DNA from: Candidatus Cloacimonadales bacterium
Lineage (GTDB): Bacteria > Cloacimonadota > Cloacimonadia > Cloacimonadales > JAIOQZ01
Direction: 5' to 3'
Assembly: GCA_963665815.1 (NCBI GenBank)
Contig: OY762463.1
Location: forward strand, 3,456,001 to 3,520,000
Length of the DNA: 64,000 bases
How positions within the stretch are numbered: the first letter of the stretch is position 1; each line of letters starts with the position of its first letter. Made by a program: the position numbers and the translations under genes. The notes beneath the pieces were generated by a model, which saw only the letters and a list, made by a program, of their open reading frames with translations, did no database searches and was not told where the DNA came from. This document shows positions 3,978 to 54,152 of this stretch, one piece after another.

Positions 3978-4125
3978 ATCTTCCATCCTATGGAGGGGAG
4001 CATCACAGTAATTATGATTTTAGAAGGCTATTAACAATTCCTGACAACTTTTTACCATTATACCAAAATACTTGACGGATAGCAACCCTTGCTTAACTAA
4101 TAGTTTCATTAATGGGGAGAATGGT

Positions 4126-7100
4126 ATGACGTTTAATGAAATACTTAGTAAATACAGAAAGATAGCGTTTTCAGAAAGAGATAAAGGCGAACGTTTTGAA
4201 AGATTGATGGCTGCGTATCTGCAGACTGATCCTAATTATGGGGATCAATTGAATACAGTTTGGATGTGGAATGACTTTCCTTTCAGGGATGATTTTGGTG
4301 GAACTGATACAGGGATTGATCTTGTAGCAAAGACTAATAATAATGAGTATTGGGCAATACAGTGTAAATTCTTCGATGAATCTGCTTACATTGATAAAGC
4401 GAGTGTGGATTCATTTTTAGCAACATCGGGACGATCATTCAGAAATGAGCAGCTTAAAACGGTTAGTTTTTCTCAAAGACTATGGATTTCAACAACGAAT
4501 AAATGGTCGGTAAATGCAGAGAATGCTCTGAAGAATCAGAATCCACCTGCATTTCGTTTAAATCTCTCCGCTCTGGAAGAAGCACCTGTAGACTGGGATA
4601 AAATCAACAAGGGATTGATAGGTAAAATAGCCAGAAAATCTAAGAAGCAATTGAGGAATCATCAGATAGAGGCATTAGTGAAGACCGAAGATTATTTTAA
4701 AAATAATGATCGAGGAAAACTGATAATGGCTTGTGGTACCGGAAAGACTTTTACAGCTTTGAAAATTTCTGAAAAAGTTACAGCAGGAAAAGGATTTGTT
4801 CTTGTTCTGGTTCCGTCTATTGCATTGATTGGGCAAATGTTACGAGAGTGGACCGGTGATGCTGAAAAGAGTATAAATGCTATTTGTATCTGTTCAGACC
4901 CCAAAGTCTCAAAACATAAAAAGAGTAACAAGGAAGGTAGTGCAGTAATTGATCTGGCTCAACCTGCATCCACAGATCCGGAATATGTGAAACACCAATT
5001 AATAGGCTTCAATAATTACGATAGCCCGAGAATGACAGTTGTTTTTTCAACATATCAGTCAATTGAAGTTATTTCAAAAGTGCAGAAAGCTATAATTAAT
5101 GCAAATATTGGTTATGATGCGTTTGATCTGATAATCTGTGATGAAGCTCATAGGACAACAGGTGTAACTTTATCCGGTGAAGATGAGTCTGCCTTTGTAA
5201 AAGTACATGACAATGATTTCATCCGAGCAAAAAAGCGATTATATATGACAGCTACTCCACGCCTTTATAGTGATGATTCCAAAAGCAAGGCAGCAATTAG
5301 TGATGCTGTTCTTTGCTCTATGGATGATGAAAAGCTATACGGGAAAGAAATTTATCGAATTGGTTTCGGTGAAGCAGTTGAAAGAGATTTGCTCACGGAT
5401 TACAAAGTATTGATATTGACATTAAATGATAATGATATCTCCCCTGTGGTACAGTCAGCATTATCCGCTGGTTCAGAACTTAGTACTGACGATGCAACAA
5501 AACTGGTGGGCGTGATAAATGCTCTCTCAAAGCAAGTGCTGGGTGATAATGGATTGTTAAAGAACAGCGACCCTGAGCCAATGAAAAGAGCTGTTGCATT
5601 TTGCCAGAATATCAAGATCTCAAAGAAAACTACATCTGTCTTCAATAATGCTTCAGAGTCATATCTTGAAACTATTGATGAGAGACGAAGAAAAAAAATG
5701 GTGCAGGCTTCCTCAAAACATATTGATGGAACTATGTCTGCAACTGAGAGAGATGATTTGCTTTCATGGTTGAAAAGTAATGATACTGAATCCGATGAGT
5801 GCCGTATTCTAACTAATGTCCGTTGTTTGAGTGAAGGAGTTGATGTACCGTCTCTTGATGCTGTAGCTTTTCTTTCAGCTAGAAATTCACAGGTTGATGT
5901 TGTTCAATCTGTGGGAAGGGTGATGAGGAAAGCACCCGGGAAAAAGTATGGTTATATTATTATTCCTGTAGTTATTCCTTCAAATATTCCTCCTTCTCAA
6001 GCACTGAATGACAATCAAAGATTCAAAGTTGTGTGGACTGTTCTTAATGCTTTGAGAGCACACGATGACAGATTTAACGCTACAGTGAACAAAATCGAGC
6101 TTAATAAGAAAAAACCTGATCAGATTCTTGTTGGCGGTATTACAAGTGATAATGAAAACGTTTCCGATAATGAGAATATCGAGATAAGCAGACAGTTAAT
6201 GCTGCAGTTTGAGGAGCTTCAGGGTGTTGTTTATGCTAAAATGGTTGAGAAAGTCGGAGATAGATTCTACTGGGAGCAATGGGCGAAAGATGTTGCGGTT
6301 ATTGCAGAGAATCAGATTGAACGAATCAACACATTGATTGATAATTGCCCTGAACATAAAGATACATTTTCAGATTTCCTCAATGGACTTCAGAAGAACA
6401 TTAATCCGGGAATTTCACATAAACAGACTGTAGAAATGCTTGCTCAGCATATTATAACCCGACCTATATTTGAATCTCTTTTCGAAAACTACTCCTTTGC
6501 AAAGAACAACGCTATTTCTCAGTCAATGCAGAATATGCTGGACATGCTTGAAGGAAACACTCTGGAGGGAGAATCCGAGACATTGCAGAAATTTTATAAT
6601 TCCGTCAGGAAAAGAGCGGAAGGGATAGATAATGCCGAAGGTAAACAGAGAATTATCATTGAACTTTACGATAAATTCTTTAAGACCGCTTTCCCTAAAA
6701 TGGTTGAGCAATTGGGAATTGTCTATACTCCGGTAGAAGTAGTTGATTTTATAATTCATTCTGTTGATAATATTCTGAGAAAAGAATTTGATAGAAGACT
6801 TACGGATGAGTATGTACATATTCTGGATCCATTTACGGGAACCGGAACATTTATAACACGTTTACTGCAAAGCGGTCTGATTGATTCCGGTGATTTAAAA
6901 CGGAAGTACAGCAAGGAACTGCATGCTAATGAGATTGTTCTACTTGCATATTATATTGCCGCCGTGAATATTGAGAATACTTTCCATGATTTGCTGGAAG
7001 AGAATGCAGCCTATAAACCTTTCGACGGAATTGTGCTGACAGATACTTTCCAGATGGGAGAGGATGAAGAAAAGGATGACTGCAGGACAACGATGTTCCC

Positions 7101-9000
7101 TAAGAACTCCGAGAGAGTGGAAGCCCAGAAGCAAACACCGATAAAAATAATAATCGGAAATCCACCTTATTCTGTTGGGCAGAAATCCGCTAATGATAAT
7201 GCCCAGAATTTGAGTTATAAGAAACTTGATAGAAGAGTTGCTGATACTTATGCAAAAGACAGTAAGGCAACATCAGTTAAAGCATTGTATGATGCATATA
7301 TTAAGGCTTTTCGCTGGGCTGCAGACAGACTTGATAAAGATGGGATTATATGTTTTGTCTCAAACGGGGCATGGATTACAACAAATGGTATGGATGGTTT
7401 CAGGAAAAGCCTGCAGAAAGAATTTTCTTCAATCTATGTTTTTGACCTAAGGGGTAATCAAAGAACAAGCGGAGAAATGTCCAGAAAAGAGGGTGGTAAA
7501 ATTTTTGGTTCCGGTTCAAGAACACAAGTCTCCGTTACACTATTGGTAAAGAATAGTAAATCAAATAAAAATGCTGAAATCTTCTACTGCGATATAGGTG
7601 ATTATTTGAACAGAAATGAAAAACTAAGTCTTCTTAGAAAATATAAATCTGTTACCAGTGAAGAAATGAAATGGAGAAAACTTAAACCCAATAAGCACGG
7701 AGACTGGCTTAATCAGAGAAATGATGTTTTTTCTAATTATCTGCCTATGGCTCCGGATAAGAAATTCAGTACTAATAGCAAATCTTTTTTTGTTGTTAAC
7801 TCCATGGGAGTAAATACAAGTAGAGATGTTTGGGTTTACAATTTTTCCAGTAAATCTGTAAGAAATAATATGGAGAAGATGGTTAGAAACTACAATGAAG
7901 AAGTAAAACGATTCAAAAAGGCTAAGGCTTATAATCCTGCTCTCGAAGCAAAGACCTTTGTTGATAACAATCCTGAATATATAAGCTGGTCCAGTAGTTT
8001 ATTGCCAAATGTTGATAGAGGTAATTTCGCAGAATATGAACCTGAGAGAGTAATTAAATCAATTTACAGACCTTTTGTTAAACAAAATCTTTATATGGGT
8101 GACAAAATGATTCACAGACGAGGGCAGATGGAACAGGTTTTCCAAGATTATAAAGAAAAAAATGTTGTTATTTCGATCCATAGTTCGAGCAGTGCGAAGG
8201 AATTTTCTTGTTTAGTATCTGACATTATGATGGATTTGCACTATGTAGGAGATACACAATGTTTCCCTCTCTACTATTTTGAAGAGAAGAACGAAATGCA
8301 AAATACTTTGTTTGATATTGGAGGAAACAGTAAGTATAAGAGGCTGGATGGTGTTTCTGATTTTATTCTCAAGCAGGCAGTAAAGTTATATGGTAAGAGA
8401 GTGACCAAGGAAAATATATTTTACTATGTTTACGGAATTCTGCACAGTAGGGACTACAGAGCTGCATTTGCCAATGATCTTAAGAAGATGCTGCCGAGAA
8501 TTCCTCTTGTTGAGCGGCCTAAAGATTTCTGGGCATTCTGCCGGGCTGGAGAAAAACTCGCAGATCTGCATCTTAATTATGAGTCTGTTCCTGCTGCTCC
8601 TGGTTTGCTTATCATTGTTGATGGACAGACAGAGCAAATGAATGAGGTACGTCTTAATACAGGTAAAGAGGATCATGTGAATTTCCATGTAACAAAAATG
8701 CGTTTTCCTAAAAAGGGTGAGAGGGATAAGATAATTTACAATAGTTTATTAACTGTGGAGAATATTCCCGAAAAAGCCTATGAGTATCAGGTTAACGGTA
8801 AATCTGCAATTGAATGGATAATGGAGCGTTACCAGATTAAAACGGATAAAAAATCAGGTATCACGAATGATCCTAATGATTGGGCGGAGGAAACAGGCAA
8901 TCCTCGCTATATACTGGATTTGCTTTTGAGTGTGATTAATGTAAGCATCCAGACTGTAGATATTGTTAATAATCTGCCAGCATTAGAGTTTGATGTATAA
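4126..9000 (+). CDS. Type ISP (LlaGI/LlaBIII-like) single-polypeptide restriction-modification enzyme
   Basis: Mrr-like nuclease (GIDLVA...AIQCK), SF2 helicase (MACGTGKT, DEAH, QSVGRVMR), N6-adenine MTase (DPFTGTGTF, GNPPY) and C-terminal TRD; start set at ATG 4126 behind GGGGAG. Confidence 0.93.
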   Translation: MTFNEILSKYRKIAFSERDKGERFERLMAAYLQTDPNYGDQLNTVWMWNDFPFRDDFGGTDTGIDLVAKTNNNEYWAIQCKFFDESAYIDKASVDSFLATSGRSFRNEQLKTVSFSQRLWISTTNKWSVNAENALKNQNPPAFRLNLSALEEAPVDWDKINKGLIGKIARKSKKQLRNHQIEALVKTEDYFKNNDRGKLIMACGTGKTFTALKISEKVTAGKGFVLVLVPSIALIGQMLREWTGDAEKSINAICICSDPKVSKHKKSNKEGSAVIDLAQPASTDPEYVKHQLIGFNNYDSPRMTVVFSTYQSIEVISKVQKAIINANIGYDAFDLIICDEAHRTTGVTLSGEDESAFVKVHDNDFIRAKKRLYMTATPRLYSDDSKSKAAISDAVLCSMDDEKLYGKEIYRIGFGEAVERDLLTDYKVLILTLNDNDISPVVQSALSAGSELSTDDATKLVGVINALSKQVLGDNGLLKNSDPEPMKRAVAFCQNIKISKKTTSVFNNASESYLETIDERRRKKMVQASSKHIDGTMSATERDDLLSWLKSNDTESDECRILTNVRCLSEGVDVPSLDAVAFLSARNSQVDVVQSVGRVMRKAPGKKYGYIIIPVVIPSNIPPSQALNDNQRFKVVWTVLNALRAHDDRFNATVNKIELNKKKPDQILVGGITSDNENVSDNENIEISRQLMLQFEELQGVVYAKMVEKVGDRFYWEQWAKDVAVIAENQIERINTLIDNCPEHKDTFSDFLNGLQKNINPGISHKQTVEMLAQHIITRPIFESLFENYSFAKNNAISQSMQNMLDMLEGNTLEGESETLQKFYNSVRKRAEGIDNAEGKQRIIIELYDKFFKTAFPKMVEQLGIVYTPVEVVDFIIHSVDNILRKEFDRRLTDEYVHILDPFTGTGTFITRLLQSGLIDSGDLKRKYSKELHANEIVLLAYYIAAVNIENTFHDLLEENAAYKPFDGIVLTDTFQMGEDEEKDDCRTTMFPKNSERVEAQKQTPIKIIIGNPPYSVGQKSANDNAQNLSYKKLDRRVADTYAKDSKATSVKALYDAYIKAFRWAADRLDKDGIICFVSNGAWITTNGMDGFRKSLQKEFSSIYVFDLRGNQRTSGEMSRKEGGKIFGSGSRTQVSVTLLVKNSKSNKNAEIFYCDIGDYLNRNEKLSLLRKYKSVTSEEMKWRKLKPNKHGDWLNQRNDVFSNYLPMAPDKKFSTNSKSFFVVNSMGVNTSRDVWVYNFSSKSVRNNMEKMVRNYNEEVKRFKKAKAYNPALEAKTFVDNNPEYISWSSSLLPNVDRGNFAEYEPERVIKSIYRPFVKQNLYMGDKMIHRRGQMEQVFQDYKEKNVVISIHSSSSAKEFSCLVSDIMMDLHYVGDTQCFPLYYFEEKNEMQNTLFDIGGNSKYKRLDGVSDFILKQAVKLYGKRVTKENIFYYVYGILHSRDYRAAFANDLKKMLPRIPLVERPKDFWAFCRAGEKLADLHLNYESVPAAPGLLIIVDGQTEQMNEVRLNTGKEDHVNFHVTKMRFPKKGERDKIIYNSLLTVENIPEKAYEYQVNGKSAIEWIMERYQIKTDKKSGITNDPNDWAEETGNPRYILDLLLSVINVSIQTVDIVNNLPALEFDV

Positions 9001-9030: not shown

Positions 9031-11022
9031 GTAGAGACACAACATCTTGTGTCTCAGGAGAGAAACCTGTGGGTAAGAAACAAAAAACGGAATAAAATTA
9101 ACGTGGTTAACATGCGGAATCATATAGTATTGGTTTTGCAGGATTTTTGAGCCACAAGATATTGTGGCTCTACAAAGCGGTTAACTCTCTGTGGATATGC
9201 ATGCAACGTAGAGACACAACATCTTGTGTCTCTGAATAGAAACCTGTGGGTGAGAAACAATAACCGGAATAAAAGAAACACGGGTTAACAGCCGGAATCA
9301 TATAATGTTTGGTTCTGCATGACATTTGAGCCACAAGATATTGTGGCTCTACAAATTGGTTAAATCTCTGTGGATATGCATGCATCGTAGAGACACAACA
9401 TCTTGTGTCTCTGAATAGAAACCTGTGGGTGAGAAACAATAAGCGGAATAAAAGAAACGCGGTTTAACAACCGGAATCATATAATGTTTGGTTCTGCATG
9501 ACATTTGAGCCACAAGATATTGTGGCTCTACAAATTGGTTAAATCTCTGTGGATATGCATGCATCGTAGAGACACAACATCTTGTGTCTCTGAATAGAAA
9601 CCTGTGGGTGAGAAACAATAAGCGGAATAAAAGAAACGCGGTTTAACAACCGGAATCATATAGTGTTGGTTTTGCAGGATTTTTGAGCCACAAGATATTG
9701 TAGCTCTACAAAGCTGTTAACTCTCTGCGGCTATGCATACATCGTAGAGACACAATATCTTGTGTCTCTGAATAGAAACCTGTGGGTGAGAAACAATAAG
9801 CGGAATAAAAGAAACGCGGTTTAACAACCGGAATCATATAATGTTGGTTTTGCAGGATTTTTGAGCCACAAGATATTGTGGCTCTACAAAGCGGTTAACT
9901 CTCTGTGGATATGCATGCAACGTAGAGACACAACATCTTGTGTCTCTGAATAGAAACCTGTGGGTGAGAAACAATAACCGGAATAAAATAAACGTTGGTT
10001 TAACAACCGGAATCATATAGTGTTGGTTTTGCAGGATTTTTGAGCCACAAGATATTGTGGCTCTACAAAGCTGTTAACTCTCTGCGGCTATGCATACATC
10101 GTAGAGACACAATATCTTGTGTCTCTGAATAGAAACCTGTGGGTGAGAAACAATAAGCGGAATAAAAGAAACGCGGTTTAACAACCGGAATCATATAGTG
10201 TTGGTTTTGCAGGATTTTTGAGCCACAAGATATTGTAGCTCTACAAAGCTGTTAACTCTCTGCGGCTATGCATACATCGTAGAGACACAATATCTTGTGT
10301 CTCTGAATAGAAACCTGTGTGTGAGAAACAATAACCGGAATAAAATAAACGTTGGTTTAACAACCGGAATCATATAATGTTGGTTTTGCAGGATTTTTGA
10401 GCCACAAGATATTGTGGCTCTACAAAGCTGTTAACTCTCTGTGAATATGCATGCAACGTAGAGACACAACATCTTGTGTCTCTGAATAGAAAATTATTGA
10501 ATCAGGAAACAATAAGCGGAATAAAATAAACGTGGTTTAACAACCGGAATCATATAATGTTTGGTTCTGCATGACATTTGAGCCACAAGATATTGTGGAT
10601 CAACAAAACGGTTAATTTTCTGCGGATATGAAAGGTCGTATAGACACAACATCTTGTGTCTCAGAATAGAAAATTATTAAATCAGGAAACAATAACCGGA
10701 ATAAAATAAACGTGGATTAACAACCGGAATCATATAATGTTTGGTTCTGTGGGATATTCGAGCCACAAGATATTGTGGCTCTACAAAGCTGTTAACTCTC
10801 TGTGAATATGCATGTATCATAGAGACACAACATCTTGTGTCTCTGAATAGAAACCTGTGGGTGAGAAACAATAACCGGAATAAAATAAACGTTGGTTTAA
10901 CAACCGGAATCATATAGTGTTGGTTTTGCAGGATTTTTGAGCCACAAGATATTGTAGCTCTACAAAGCTGTTAACTCTATGCGGATATGCATACATCGTA
11001 GAGACACAATATCTTGTGTCTC
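9031..11022. repeat. Tandem array of 11 units (177-181 bp) of inverted GTAG-REP pairs (BIME/REPIN-like), ending in a 12th REP-A
   Basis: REP-A GTAGAGACACAA(C/T)ATCTTGTGTCTC at 9031, 9208, 9387, 9566, 9744, 9922, 10101, 10279, 10458, 10638, 10819 and 10998; inverted REP-B GAGCCACAAGATATTGTGGCTCTAC once per unit (e.g. 9149, 9328). Confidence 0.95.
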
Positions 11023-11062
11023 TGAATAGAAAATTATGAATTATAGTATTGGGAGTGAGTAA

Positions 11063-11701
11063 TTGGTAAAATTCAAAAACAAATATCGAATCTCAACCAC
11101 TAGATTGCATAGTTGGGATTATAGTTGGAATGCAGTATATTTCGTGACAATTTGTACTCATAATAAAGAGCATTTCTTTGGAAGAATTCTATCAGGTGAA
11201 ATGGTTTTATCAGAAATTGGACAAATCGCTGATGAATTCTGGAAAGATATTCCACAGCATTTTCCGTTTGTAAAATTAGGTGAATATATAATAATGCCAA
11301 ATCATATACACGGGTTAGTCAGAATAGATAAGGTCATAGAAGATAATTCTACTACTGTAGAAACACAATATTCTGTATCTCAAAAACAGAATATTGCACT
11401 TGAGAATAATAATGATGTAACTCCAGGACATATTTTTGGAATCAATGAGTCACAAGATATTGTGGCTCTACACCCATACTCATTAACAATGAATAAATTT
11501 GGTCCACAATCAGGGAATTTGGCATCTATTATAAGGGGTTTTAAATCTGGTGTAACAAAGAAAGCAAGAAAAATTGATCCTCTTTTCAGATGGCAGCCCA
11601 GGTATTTTGATCATATAGTCCGCAATAACAATGATTTTGACAACATAACGAGATATATTATAGACAATCCAGAAAATTGGAATGAAGATGAGCTGTTTTG
11701 A
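11063..11701 (+). mobile_element. REP-associated tyrosine transposase (RAYT; IS200-like HUH Y1 family)
   Basis: RLHSWDYS...YFVTICT, HUH motif MPNHIHG, WQPRYFDHIVRN, catalytic Tyr in RYIIDNP; TTG start behind GGGAG; flanked by REPs. Confidence 0.9.
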
Positions 11702-11702
11702 T

Positions 11703-11904
11703 GTAGAGACACAACATCTTGTGTCTCTGAATAGAAACCTGTGGGTGAGAAACAATAACCGGAATAAAATAAACGTGGTTAACAGCCGGAATCATATAAT
11801 GTTTGGTTCTGCAGGATTTTTGAGCCACAAGATATTGTGGCTCTACAAAGCTGTTAACTCTCTGTGGATATGAAAGGTCTTAGAGACACAACATCTTGTG
11901 TCTC
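11703..11904. repeat. One further REP-pair unit plus a terminal REP-A downstream of the RAYT
   Basis: REP-A at 11703, REP-B at 11822, REP-A variant at 11880; spacers match the upstream array. Confidence 0.93.
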
Positions 11905-11975: not shown

Positions 11976-12851
11976 TTACTTAACGGCTATGTACATGTCG
12001 AAGCCGGGTTTATCGTTGAGAACCTGGTCTACTCCGTTTTCCCAGATCGTAAATTCGTCCTTCGGAGCAAATTCGTAATTGACATTTTTTATCCATTCGC
12101 AACAAATAAAGACGTAAGCGTCACGTACGGTTTTCATGCTGCCTTTATGCGTGAAAATTGCATATTGATGTTCAGGAATAGTGTATCGGTTCAGTCCTGC
12201 CGGGGTTGGCTCAGACGGATCGATCTCTATTCCAGTTACATACTGCCATTTGTCTTCAGGTCCCGGTTCCTGATCCATAAATCTCGGATCATGGAAGCAC
12301 AGTCCCACCGCTTTTGCAATCTGAAGTTTTTGGTTTCCTGCAATTTTGTCATTCAGGTCTTTCCACATTTCATTAATCTGAGTTCCTTGAGTCTTGGTTA
12401 TAATTTCTCTTTGAAGTCCGACTAACGTAATCTCTTTTACTGTTTTGATTTTGTAATCCATTCTTTTTCCTCCTGTGTTATAGAGGCAGATCTGCACGTT
12501 CATTTTTTGTTTGTATTTTATCAGCTGATTTTTTTTTCTGAAAGCCTGAGGAGTCATACTGAAATATTTGCGGAATGCCCTGATAAAGGTTTCCGGGTTA
12601 CCGAATCCTGTTTTTTCCGACAGTGCTTTTACGGTGATATCAGAATTCAGCAGTTCTTTTGCAGCTTCGGAAAGGATGCGTTCCCGCATGTAAGTTTTGA
12701 TTCCTGTTCCGGTGAATATGGAGAACACTCTGCTGAAATGGTATTGTGAGAATCCGCAGTAATCAGCAACCTGTTCTACGGTTGGCTGAGTGAACAATCT
12801 GTTTTCGATGTAATTCACTGATCTCTGGAGTATATTCTGATAATCCGGCAT
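11976..12851 (-). CDS. AraC-family (Rob-like) regulator with C-terminal GyrI-like effector domain
   Basis: N-terminal AraC HTHs (FSQYHFSRVF, GFGNPETFIRAFRKYFSMTP); C-terminal YAIFTHKG. Confidence 0.9.
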   Translation of the reverse strand: MPDYQNILQRSVNYIENRLFTQPTVEQVADYCGFSQYHFSRVFSIFTGTGIKTYMRERILSEAAKELLNSDITVKALSEKTGFGNPETFIRAFRKYFSMTPQAFRKKNQLIKYKQKMNVQICLYNTGGKRMDYKIKTVKEITLVGLQREIITKTQGTQINEMWKDLNDKIAGNQKLQIAKAVGLCFHDPRFMDQEPGPEDKWQYVTGIEIDPSEPTPAGLNRYTIPEHQYAIFTHKGSMKTVRDAYVFICCEWIKNVNYEFAPKDEFTIWENGVDQVLNDKPGFDMYIAVK

Positions 12852-53382: not shown

Positions 53383-53925
53383 TCAGAAGCTATCATTGAT
53401 TTCGAGTTTATCTATTGGGTACAATTCTTTTACTTCTTCTATATCATTACCTTGATCTTCTAATCTATAAAAGTAACTGCCAAACTTCCAATTATCAGGT
53501 GTTGTAACATAACCGTGCTTTACCGGATTGTGCCAAATGTAATTTACTCTTGCATAATAAGATTTTTGATAAGATATACATTTATCCCAGTAATTATGAA
53601 AATATTTTTCTCTTTGTTTAACAATACAATTTCGAGAAAGCCAGTTTGCTGTAAACTTATGGAAATTATTCAATACATTTCTGAGAGTTTTAGCATTCTT
53701 TGGAGCATCAGCCATTAGATGAATATGATTATCAAGGATTACCCAATCCTCTAGTTCCCAACCAAAGTGCTCAAATGATTCTATAAGATATTTCAAAGCA
53801 GCTTCTTTTGCTGCATCTGTTTTCAAGTACTTGAATTTTCCTAAGGTTGAGGCAGTGATAAAATACTTTGAATCAGGAACAAACAAATGGGGAGGATTGT
53901 GCTTATATCTTCTAATTTTATTCAT
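53383..53925 (-). mobile_element. Second REP-associated tyrosine transposase (HUH Y1)
   Basis: YFITAST, WVILDNHIHL (HUH), YWD..I, NYIWHNPVKHG (catalytic Tyr), W.FGS; start set at ATG 53925. Confidence 0.87.
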
Positions 53926-53964
53926 GATTGAATTCCTTAACAAATATGTTGTGTAAAACCCAGA

Positions 53965-54152
53965 CATCGACACAGTCGATGAACTCCTATAACTGATTTT
54001 ATCAGAAGCTATCATTGATTTCGAGTTTATAGTATTAGTACAGAATTGGAAGATTTCCTTTTCTATATAAAACTTTAAAGGTTTGATTTACAGTACTTCG
54101 GATTGCTTTAACTGTGTCAAAGCTCTTTACATCGACACAGTCGATGAACTCC
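53965..54152. repeat. Two more copies of the GGAG-type REP hairpin upstream of RAYT-2
   Basis: CATCGACACAGTCGATGAACTCC at 53965 and 54130; the GCTTT.ACTG.GTCAAAGC hairpin recurs at 54105. Confidence 0.8.

Follow-up and report, generated by a model that had tools for sequence, protein, structure and literature searches.

How does a RAYT transposase gene come to lie inside a dozen tandem copies of a REP doublet, and does such an arrangement differ in kind from the RAYT-associated arrays that have already been published? The question is raised by a window of 64,000 nucleotides (the whole stretch of DNA that was analysed) from a Candidatus Cloacimonadales bacterium, whose genome (G000) is assembled as one contig of 3.96 Mb with 36% GC. 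A preliminary description of the window attributed the array to local amplification driven by the transposase, for example of the rolling-circle type, or else to a functional array of structured RNA or single-stranded DNA sites, and considered the locus a candidate for an undescribed RAYT-array system.

Organization of the array

The array was described as consisting of 11 units before the transposase gene and one after it, and this count is borne out. Unit mapping places the units as listed in Table 1. TRF reported a tandem repeat with a period of 179 bp, 11.3 copies, 91% matches, and a score of 3113. Furthermore, a degenerate REP pattern had 27 matches in the window versus none in each of 100 shuffles. 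Each unit consists of REP-A (25 nt), a spacer of 93–97 bp, an inverted REP-B (25 nt), and a linker of 33–34 bp. The layout is the one originally proposed; the dimensions needed a small adjustment, as the spacer (given as ~93–96 bp) reaches 97 bp in units 9 and 10 and the linker (given as ~34 bp) can be 33 bp. REP-A and REP-B both fold into a 9-bp stem with a 4-base loop and a GTAG foot. They differ at one stem pair, where the change is compensatory, and at a single base of the loop. GTAG and CTAC tetranucleotides were thought to bound every cassette. They mostly do, but the foot is damaged in 4 of the 26 REPs that flank the gene (at 10580, 10638, 10819, and 11880).

Because lone copies of REP-A stand at 10998–11022 and 11880–11904, the whole array opens and closes on REP-A. 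The ~15 bp after the first of these copies resemble the start of the unit-9 spacer. The two REP types alternate in orientation, and two alternating linkers are conserved within the locus, an architecture like that of BIME-2. The units are BIME/REPIN-like, as had been supposed.

Table 1. Features of the array locus and its neighbours (coordinates in the window)
Feature	Coordinates	Strand	Basis
Neighbouring gene for a type ISP restriction-modification enzyme of 1642 aa; its membership of the element is not shown	4072..9000	+	
Upstream tandem array, 11 complete units of 177–181 bp	9031..10997	+	
Lone REP-A closing the upstream array	10998..11022	+	
Likely ribosome-binding site, GGGAG-rich, ahead of a TTG start	11052..11060	+	sequence
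RAYT / TnpA-REP gene, 212 aa, subclass 2.4 type	11063..11701	+	motifs, profile matches
In-frame intragenic REP pair: worn REP-A (11357–11381) and REP-B (11447–11471)	11357..11471	+	
Downstream unit 12; begins 2 bp past the RAYT stop codon	11703..11879	+	
Last lone REP-A, foot damaged (TTAG)	11880..11904	+	
AraC/GyrI-like regulator; neighbour, convergent on the locus	11976..12851	-	

Could the assembly have inflated the number of units? Among the contig pieces listed from three read runs no piece crosses the whole array, and the runs come from one sample that is possibly the source of the assembly, so they are not independent of it. However, the genome was assembled as a single contig, and contigs of all three runs reproduce variants that are private to individual units. 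Word depth also fits the assembled multiplicity in the three runs (r = 0.994, 0.969, and 0.996 over the listed pieces, 8 per run, with 65 further contig pieces outside the comparison). An inflated copy number appears highly improbable.

The RAYT and its subclass

The reading frame of the RAYT gene is open, without stops, and its start position is shared with homologues. The protein has an HUH motif (N80-H81-I82-H83), a W177-Q178 pair, and a predicted catalytic tyrosine, Y198, in the motif YIIDNP. H81, H83, Y198, N202, and P203 are invariant in 36 aligned homologues (36 of the 120 listed proteins). Profile matches are limited to RAYT/Y1 models, and an insert splits the match in two: NCBIfam REP_Tyr_transpos was matched at E 1.6e-14 (54 bits, under the 80-bit cut-off) and Pfam Y1_Tnp at 21.1 bits (under the cut-off of 23). 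The sole PDB match is TnpA-REP (4ER8), with an E value of 0.024 for the single sequence and 1.6e-5 with the alignment. Relatives number 3967 at E ≤0.001, the best of them being ~50–56% identical. The motifs and the 26 flanking REPs uphold the original identification of the protein as a RAYT/TnpA-REP enzyme with GTAG-type REPs. An IS200/IS605 insertion sequence was rejected because the tyrosine motif is Y-x-x-x-N-P, not Y-x-x-x-Q, and because the gene is present in one genomic copy with no near-identical others. A plasmid search returned three records with distant matches, all of them large and predicted to be non-mobilizable.

Absent from the preliminary description was the REP pair inside the gene, whose REP-A has five mismatches and whose REP-B has one, the two lying 65 bp apart. 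The pair encodes residues 99–137, between the HUH and Tyr motifs. A variable in-frame REP insert is a mark of TnpA-REP subclass 2.4, which corresponds to Group 4 of Bertels (PMC5581495) and has the motifs NH[IFV]H, WQ, and YIxNNP (Quentin 2018, PMC6006769); some members of subclasses 2.7 and 2.8 likewise carry such an insert (PMC6006769). The in-frame REP pair, together with NHIH and WQ, therefore places the RAYT in subclass 2.4. There is good support from motif and insert for this assignment, with one residue of the Tyr motif deviating from the published YIxNNP; when the 36 homologues are aligned, their consensus reads YIINNP. The locus further resembles published subclass 2.4/Group 4 systems (PMC6006769, PMC5581495) in the long GTAG REPs beside the gene, in a low genome-wide number of REPs, and in that a genome has several divergent paralogues, every one of which is paired with a REP of its own. 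It differs from most close homologues in having a pair of single-foot REPs, REP-A and REP-B, where they have one double-foot REP.

Variation among the units

The units are all different. None of the 66 pairs among the 12 units is identical, and the differences range from 1 to 37 with a median of 17.5 of 182 columns. Variation is unevenly distributed: 6 of 50 REP columns are variable versus 49 of 132 spacer and linker columns (Fisher p 0.001, columns not being independent). The conservation of the REPs and the compensatory difference between REP-A and REP-B are what continued recognition of the hairpins would predict.

Of 703 site pairs, 307 failed the four-gamete test; the share was 25 of 131 among close pairs and 227 of 437 among distant ones. 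The longest exact repeats, of 136–206 bp, are offset by 3, 1, 4, 2, and 5 units. The intervals in which exchange must have occurred are scattered over the spacer and the linker, with no concentration beside the REPs. The units are mosaics of one another, although recurrent mutation and alignment gaps can mimic recombination. Since all units are distinct and mosaic, gradual growth by recombination fits better than one rolling-circle burst, and a single recent rolling-circle event is unlikely on the pattern of variation.

Distribution within the genome and its relatives

Within G000, the A-spacer-B unit, the spacer, and the linker occur at the array locus alone, and all 12 matches to REP-B within one mismatch sit there as well. 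REP-A has eight further copies at ≤1 mismatch, alone or near other REP types. A REPIN dispersed over the genome was rejected because the doublet occupies one locus rather than many unlinked sites. Outside the array, the spacer found just short matches in G000 (E 0.07 or worse), and in 200 genomes of the phylum it found REP-length matches or matches of ≤32 bp at E 0.001 or worse. A search for exact REP-B in metagenome contigs gave no matches.

A genome of the same genus (G001, in 20 contigs) has 10 copies of REP-A, and one REP-A site among nine examined is shared with G000. The array cassette is absent from the corresponding places in G001, where no match to the type ISP gene and no close match to the RAYT were found (the single match is another gene with an internal stop). 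A clean empty site was not obtained because both genes flanking the array lie on different G001 contigs. One worn piece consisting of REP-B, a 34-bp linker, and REP-A is present at a rearrangement breakpoint (L176; G001:C20, ~157860–157942) and is 78% identical to the array junction over 101 bp, which hints that the tail-to-tail REP pair may be the older unit. Given the REP-A copies, the worn piece, and the shared site, the REP family likely predates the split between the two genomes.

How common are such arrays beside homologous RAYT genes? Of 112 homologous loci, 12 duplicates or partial matches were removed and 100 were scored, the array locus included. An intragenic REP is present in 75 of them. 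Flanking REP copies number 0–2 in 87 loci, 3–6 in 11, 13 in L107, and 26 at the present locus, the largest. The scorer tracks one REP family per locus, and at L030 it overlooked a tandem of doublets (137 bp x 2.4). In L107, which is the same as L160:2556-3076 (G008), the RAYT is of the subclass 2.4 type and has a 55-bp x 9.5 single-REP tandem upstream. Another set of 29 loci, which shares members with the first, contributed L217, where 12 REPs flank the gene and 67-bp tandems are present. In wider regions taken from near-complete relatives, a mosaic of 110/144-bp modules (~1.7 kb) lies directly behind a different RAYT-like gene of 229 aa at L164:3627-5276 (G008); the REP scan found no GTAG hairpins in these modules. 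Arrays beside RAYT genes therefore recur. Only one of the 99 other scored loci has at least 10 flanking REPs, and an array of the present length beside a RAYT is uncommon. Many of the scored loci come from fragmented assemblies, which may break at arrays and so under-count them: the single-contig genome G008 has two long ones beside RAYT genes.

Several other tandem repeats near homologues were set aside as unrelated. Those at L019, L060, and L205 are coding repeats, the one at L070 lies beside a tRNA-like sequence, and the one at L067, with a 69-bp period, is inside an LRR gene. The repeat at L168:588-2311 (G022) consists of 206 bp x 8.4, is 98% identical, and has no REP that could be seen; its surroundings include a type I restriction gene and a fragment of a RAYT. 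At another locus (L088 / L199, G015), the RAYT gene itself is tandemly duplicated in a 591-bp unit that is 99% identical.

Content of the spacer and of the array

The idea of a functional array of structured RNA found no support. Folding of the spacer compared with shuffles gave z values of -0.26 and 0.11, and just the REP hairpins folded better than shuffles. Rfam gave no match up to E 1. The spacer is also more variable than the REPs and is without a homologue in the genomes searched. Since it is unstructured, variable, and confined to the locus, a functional RNA array is unsupported. A coding array was rejected because every frame has 17–48 stops and the longest open stretch is 97 codons. 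A CRISPR array was rejected because the spacers are homologous (93% mean column identity), not unique, and have no Rfam match. The array spacer visibly resembles the intragenic spacer; descent of the array spacer from the intragenic one is not supported, as 34–380 of 1000 shuffles score as well in six comparisons. Scans for promoters and terminators gave matches that recur once per unit and are uninformative.

Formation of the array

How, then, did the array arise? The locus is best read as a REPtron in which the RAYT likely seeded the doublets and ordinary recombination likely lengthened the array and shuffled its units. If it acts like the enzymes of E. coli and of group 3, the RAYT would bind a single-stranded GTAG hairpin and cut nearby through Y198. 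A nick or a strand transfer would then add a unit, seeding the doublet and its first duplication. With at least two units in place, exchange over one to five units, as judged from the sequence, would have done most of the visible shaping. The spacer would most likely be passenger DNA rather than functional RNA. Two observations count against a part for the enzyme: long arrays are rare among the other 99 loci, so a RAYT alone does not usually make them, and as no exchange hot spot is present at the REPs, the sequence gives no proof that the RAYT shared in the expansion. The earlier proposal of RAYT-driven amplification is plausible as far as initiation is concerned, whereas a single recent rolling-circle event fits poorly with the lack of any identical pair of units and with their mosaic structure.

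One rival explanation assigns everything to the enzyme: the RAYT alone would have built the array in cis, by nick-primed or rolling-circle addition of units, with little host recombination. The array lies directly against both ends of the gene and begins and ends with REP-A, its unit occurs nowhere else in G000, and relatives also have arrays that abut RAYT genes (L107/L160, L164, and L217). The mosaic pattern itself could look similar if the RAYT made strand transfers at many sites, since E. coli TnpA-REP is reported to recombine iREP and linker sites at many positions in vitro (PMC3333891). However, no two of the twelve units are identical, their median difference is 17.5 columns, and tracts of identity lie several units apart and have scattered ends, unlike the outcome of serial copying of one circle. 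We consider the enzyme acting by itself unlikely. A second rival holds that the host selected the array for a function, as an RNA/ssDNA platform or as a bait or regulatory element for the adjacent type ISP restriction enzyme. The type ISP gene looks intact and is on the same strand as the RAYT gene, and the array begins 30 bp past its stop codon. That REPINs might act as bait has been suggested before (PMC5581495), and REPs are better preserved than spacers. A restriction-modification gene is the nearest neighbour in 11 of 80 homologous loci (10 clear and 1 ambiguous, a raw count), as found in a scan of L005–L084 that used the first 330 residues of each of 141 neighbours. Yet the loci with restriction-gene neighbours are mostly without arrays, the RAYT had no PADLOC match, and the cassette is missing at the corresponding places in the same-genus genome. 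The spacer, moreover, is unstructured, has no Rfam match, and is not conserved in 200 genomes of the phylum. Host selection seems less probable than construction by the RAYT alone.

A broader version of the link to restriction, which we hold as a long shot, would make subclass 2.4 REPtrons active passengers or accessories of restriction-modification systems, with the RAYT here maintaining the 26-hairpin array right after a type ISP enzyme as a variable-length platform for ssDNA processing or as bait. If true, Group 4 enzymes and RAYT-driven expansion in cis would have in this locus their first tractable model. As it is, one enzyme with two REP forms, set apart by a compensatory stem pair, and twelve distinguishable units would provide a convenient test of RAYT versus host recombination as determinants of array length. 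The locus is likewise suited to learning how subclass 2.4 enzymes read hairpins.

Relation to known RAYT-associated arrays

The proposal that the locus represents an undescribed RAYT-array system is not supported, because tandem doublet arrays beside RAYTs and rolling-circle models for them have already been published. Nunvar 2010 (PMC2817692) described BIMEs beside one third of rayt genes, with REPs concentrated near the rayt gene in some species, and put forward a rolling-circle model. In Bertels 2011 (PMC3116915), REPINs form tandem clusters beside RAYTs, and REP pairs occur in arrays of 12. Ton-Hoang 2012 (PMC3333891) described tandem BIME-2 copies that are conserved within a locus and variable numbers of BIMEs beside tnpA-REP, together with in vitro cleavage, strand transfer or recombination, and models of rolling-circle-like amplification. 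Dimer clusters reiterated in tandem with flanking DNA were described by Di Nocera 2013. Groups 2 and 3 enzymes are covered in PMC8266576, and the comparison also took in two preprints (bioRxiv 10.1101/2022.05.22.493013 and 10.1101/2021.07.10.451892). As for subclass 2.4, neither "tandem" nor "array" occurs in the main text of PMC6006769, and a literature search that covered few subscription journals found no paper that deals specifically with the long arrays of this subclass, with its biochemistry, or with its linkage to restriction genes.

A close architectural parallel is the E. coli REPtron with its BIME-2 elements (TnpA-REP/YafM, 4ER8; PMC3333891). There, too, the gene is flanked by inverted pairs of two REP types, and tandem copies with two alternating linkers are well conserved within a locus. 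The likeness is architectural, as the REP sequences here belong to a family other than the enterobacterial y/z2. The E. coli enzyme belongs to subclass 2.2, unlike the array RAYT, and the ~600 REPs of the E. coli genome have a stem with a bulge, whereas here the 9-bp stem is perfect and the unit is present at one locus. The period of 179 bp is also longer than that of E. coli BIME-2. In Pseudomonas fluorescens SBW25 (PMC3116915), ordered tandem REP doublets with flanks likewise form clusters beside RAYT genes. The GI–GIII arrays of this strain comprise 12 REP pairs at 112- and 72-bp spacing, with a period of ~184 bp. Unlike the present case, SBW25 has group 3 enzymes and hundreds of dispersed REPINs, and the largest tandem REPIN cluster reported there is four. 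What sets the present locus apart is size, with 26 flanking REPs versus 0–2 in 87 of 100 loci; it is an unusually long but otherwise ordinary case of the published RAYT-array arrangement, and so a large addition to a class that is already known.

Other RAYT-like genes and repeats

Some homologous RAYT loci have neighbours of other kinds. Two lie beside or between CRISPR genes (L041 and L069), L022 is beside an Argonaute-domain gene, and L011 is beside an Abi-like gene. In G008, a related type ISP gene is directly followed by a RAYT with its own REPs (L185).

G000 has five RAYT-like genes, and the nearest paralogues of the array RAYT are 36–51% identical to it. Each of two more genes of the subclass 2.4 type (G000:C1:430003-430614 and 1237027-1237539) has a REP family of its own, with copies both next to the gene and within it. 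At the first of these, the upstream and intragenic doublets look like mutual copies, spacer included. At least four further GTAG REP types are present in G000, with ~5–20 copies each, and they are often paired with a REP of another type. A copy of one of the common types lies shortly downstream of a RAYT-like gene of 162 aa (2133689-2134177). The window itself contains a second RAYT-like gene of another kind (53383-54015, minus strand), which matches NCBIfam NF047646 above the cut-off. Three copies of a short hairpin that is not of the GTAG kind flank this gene, and a stretch downstream of the gene recurs at its 5' end. At the other end of the window, positions 11–157 form a perfect 30-bp tandem repeat with 4.9 copies.
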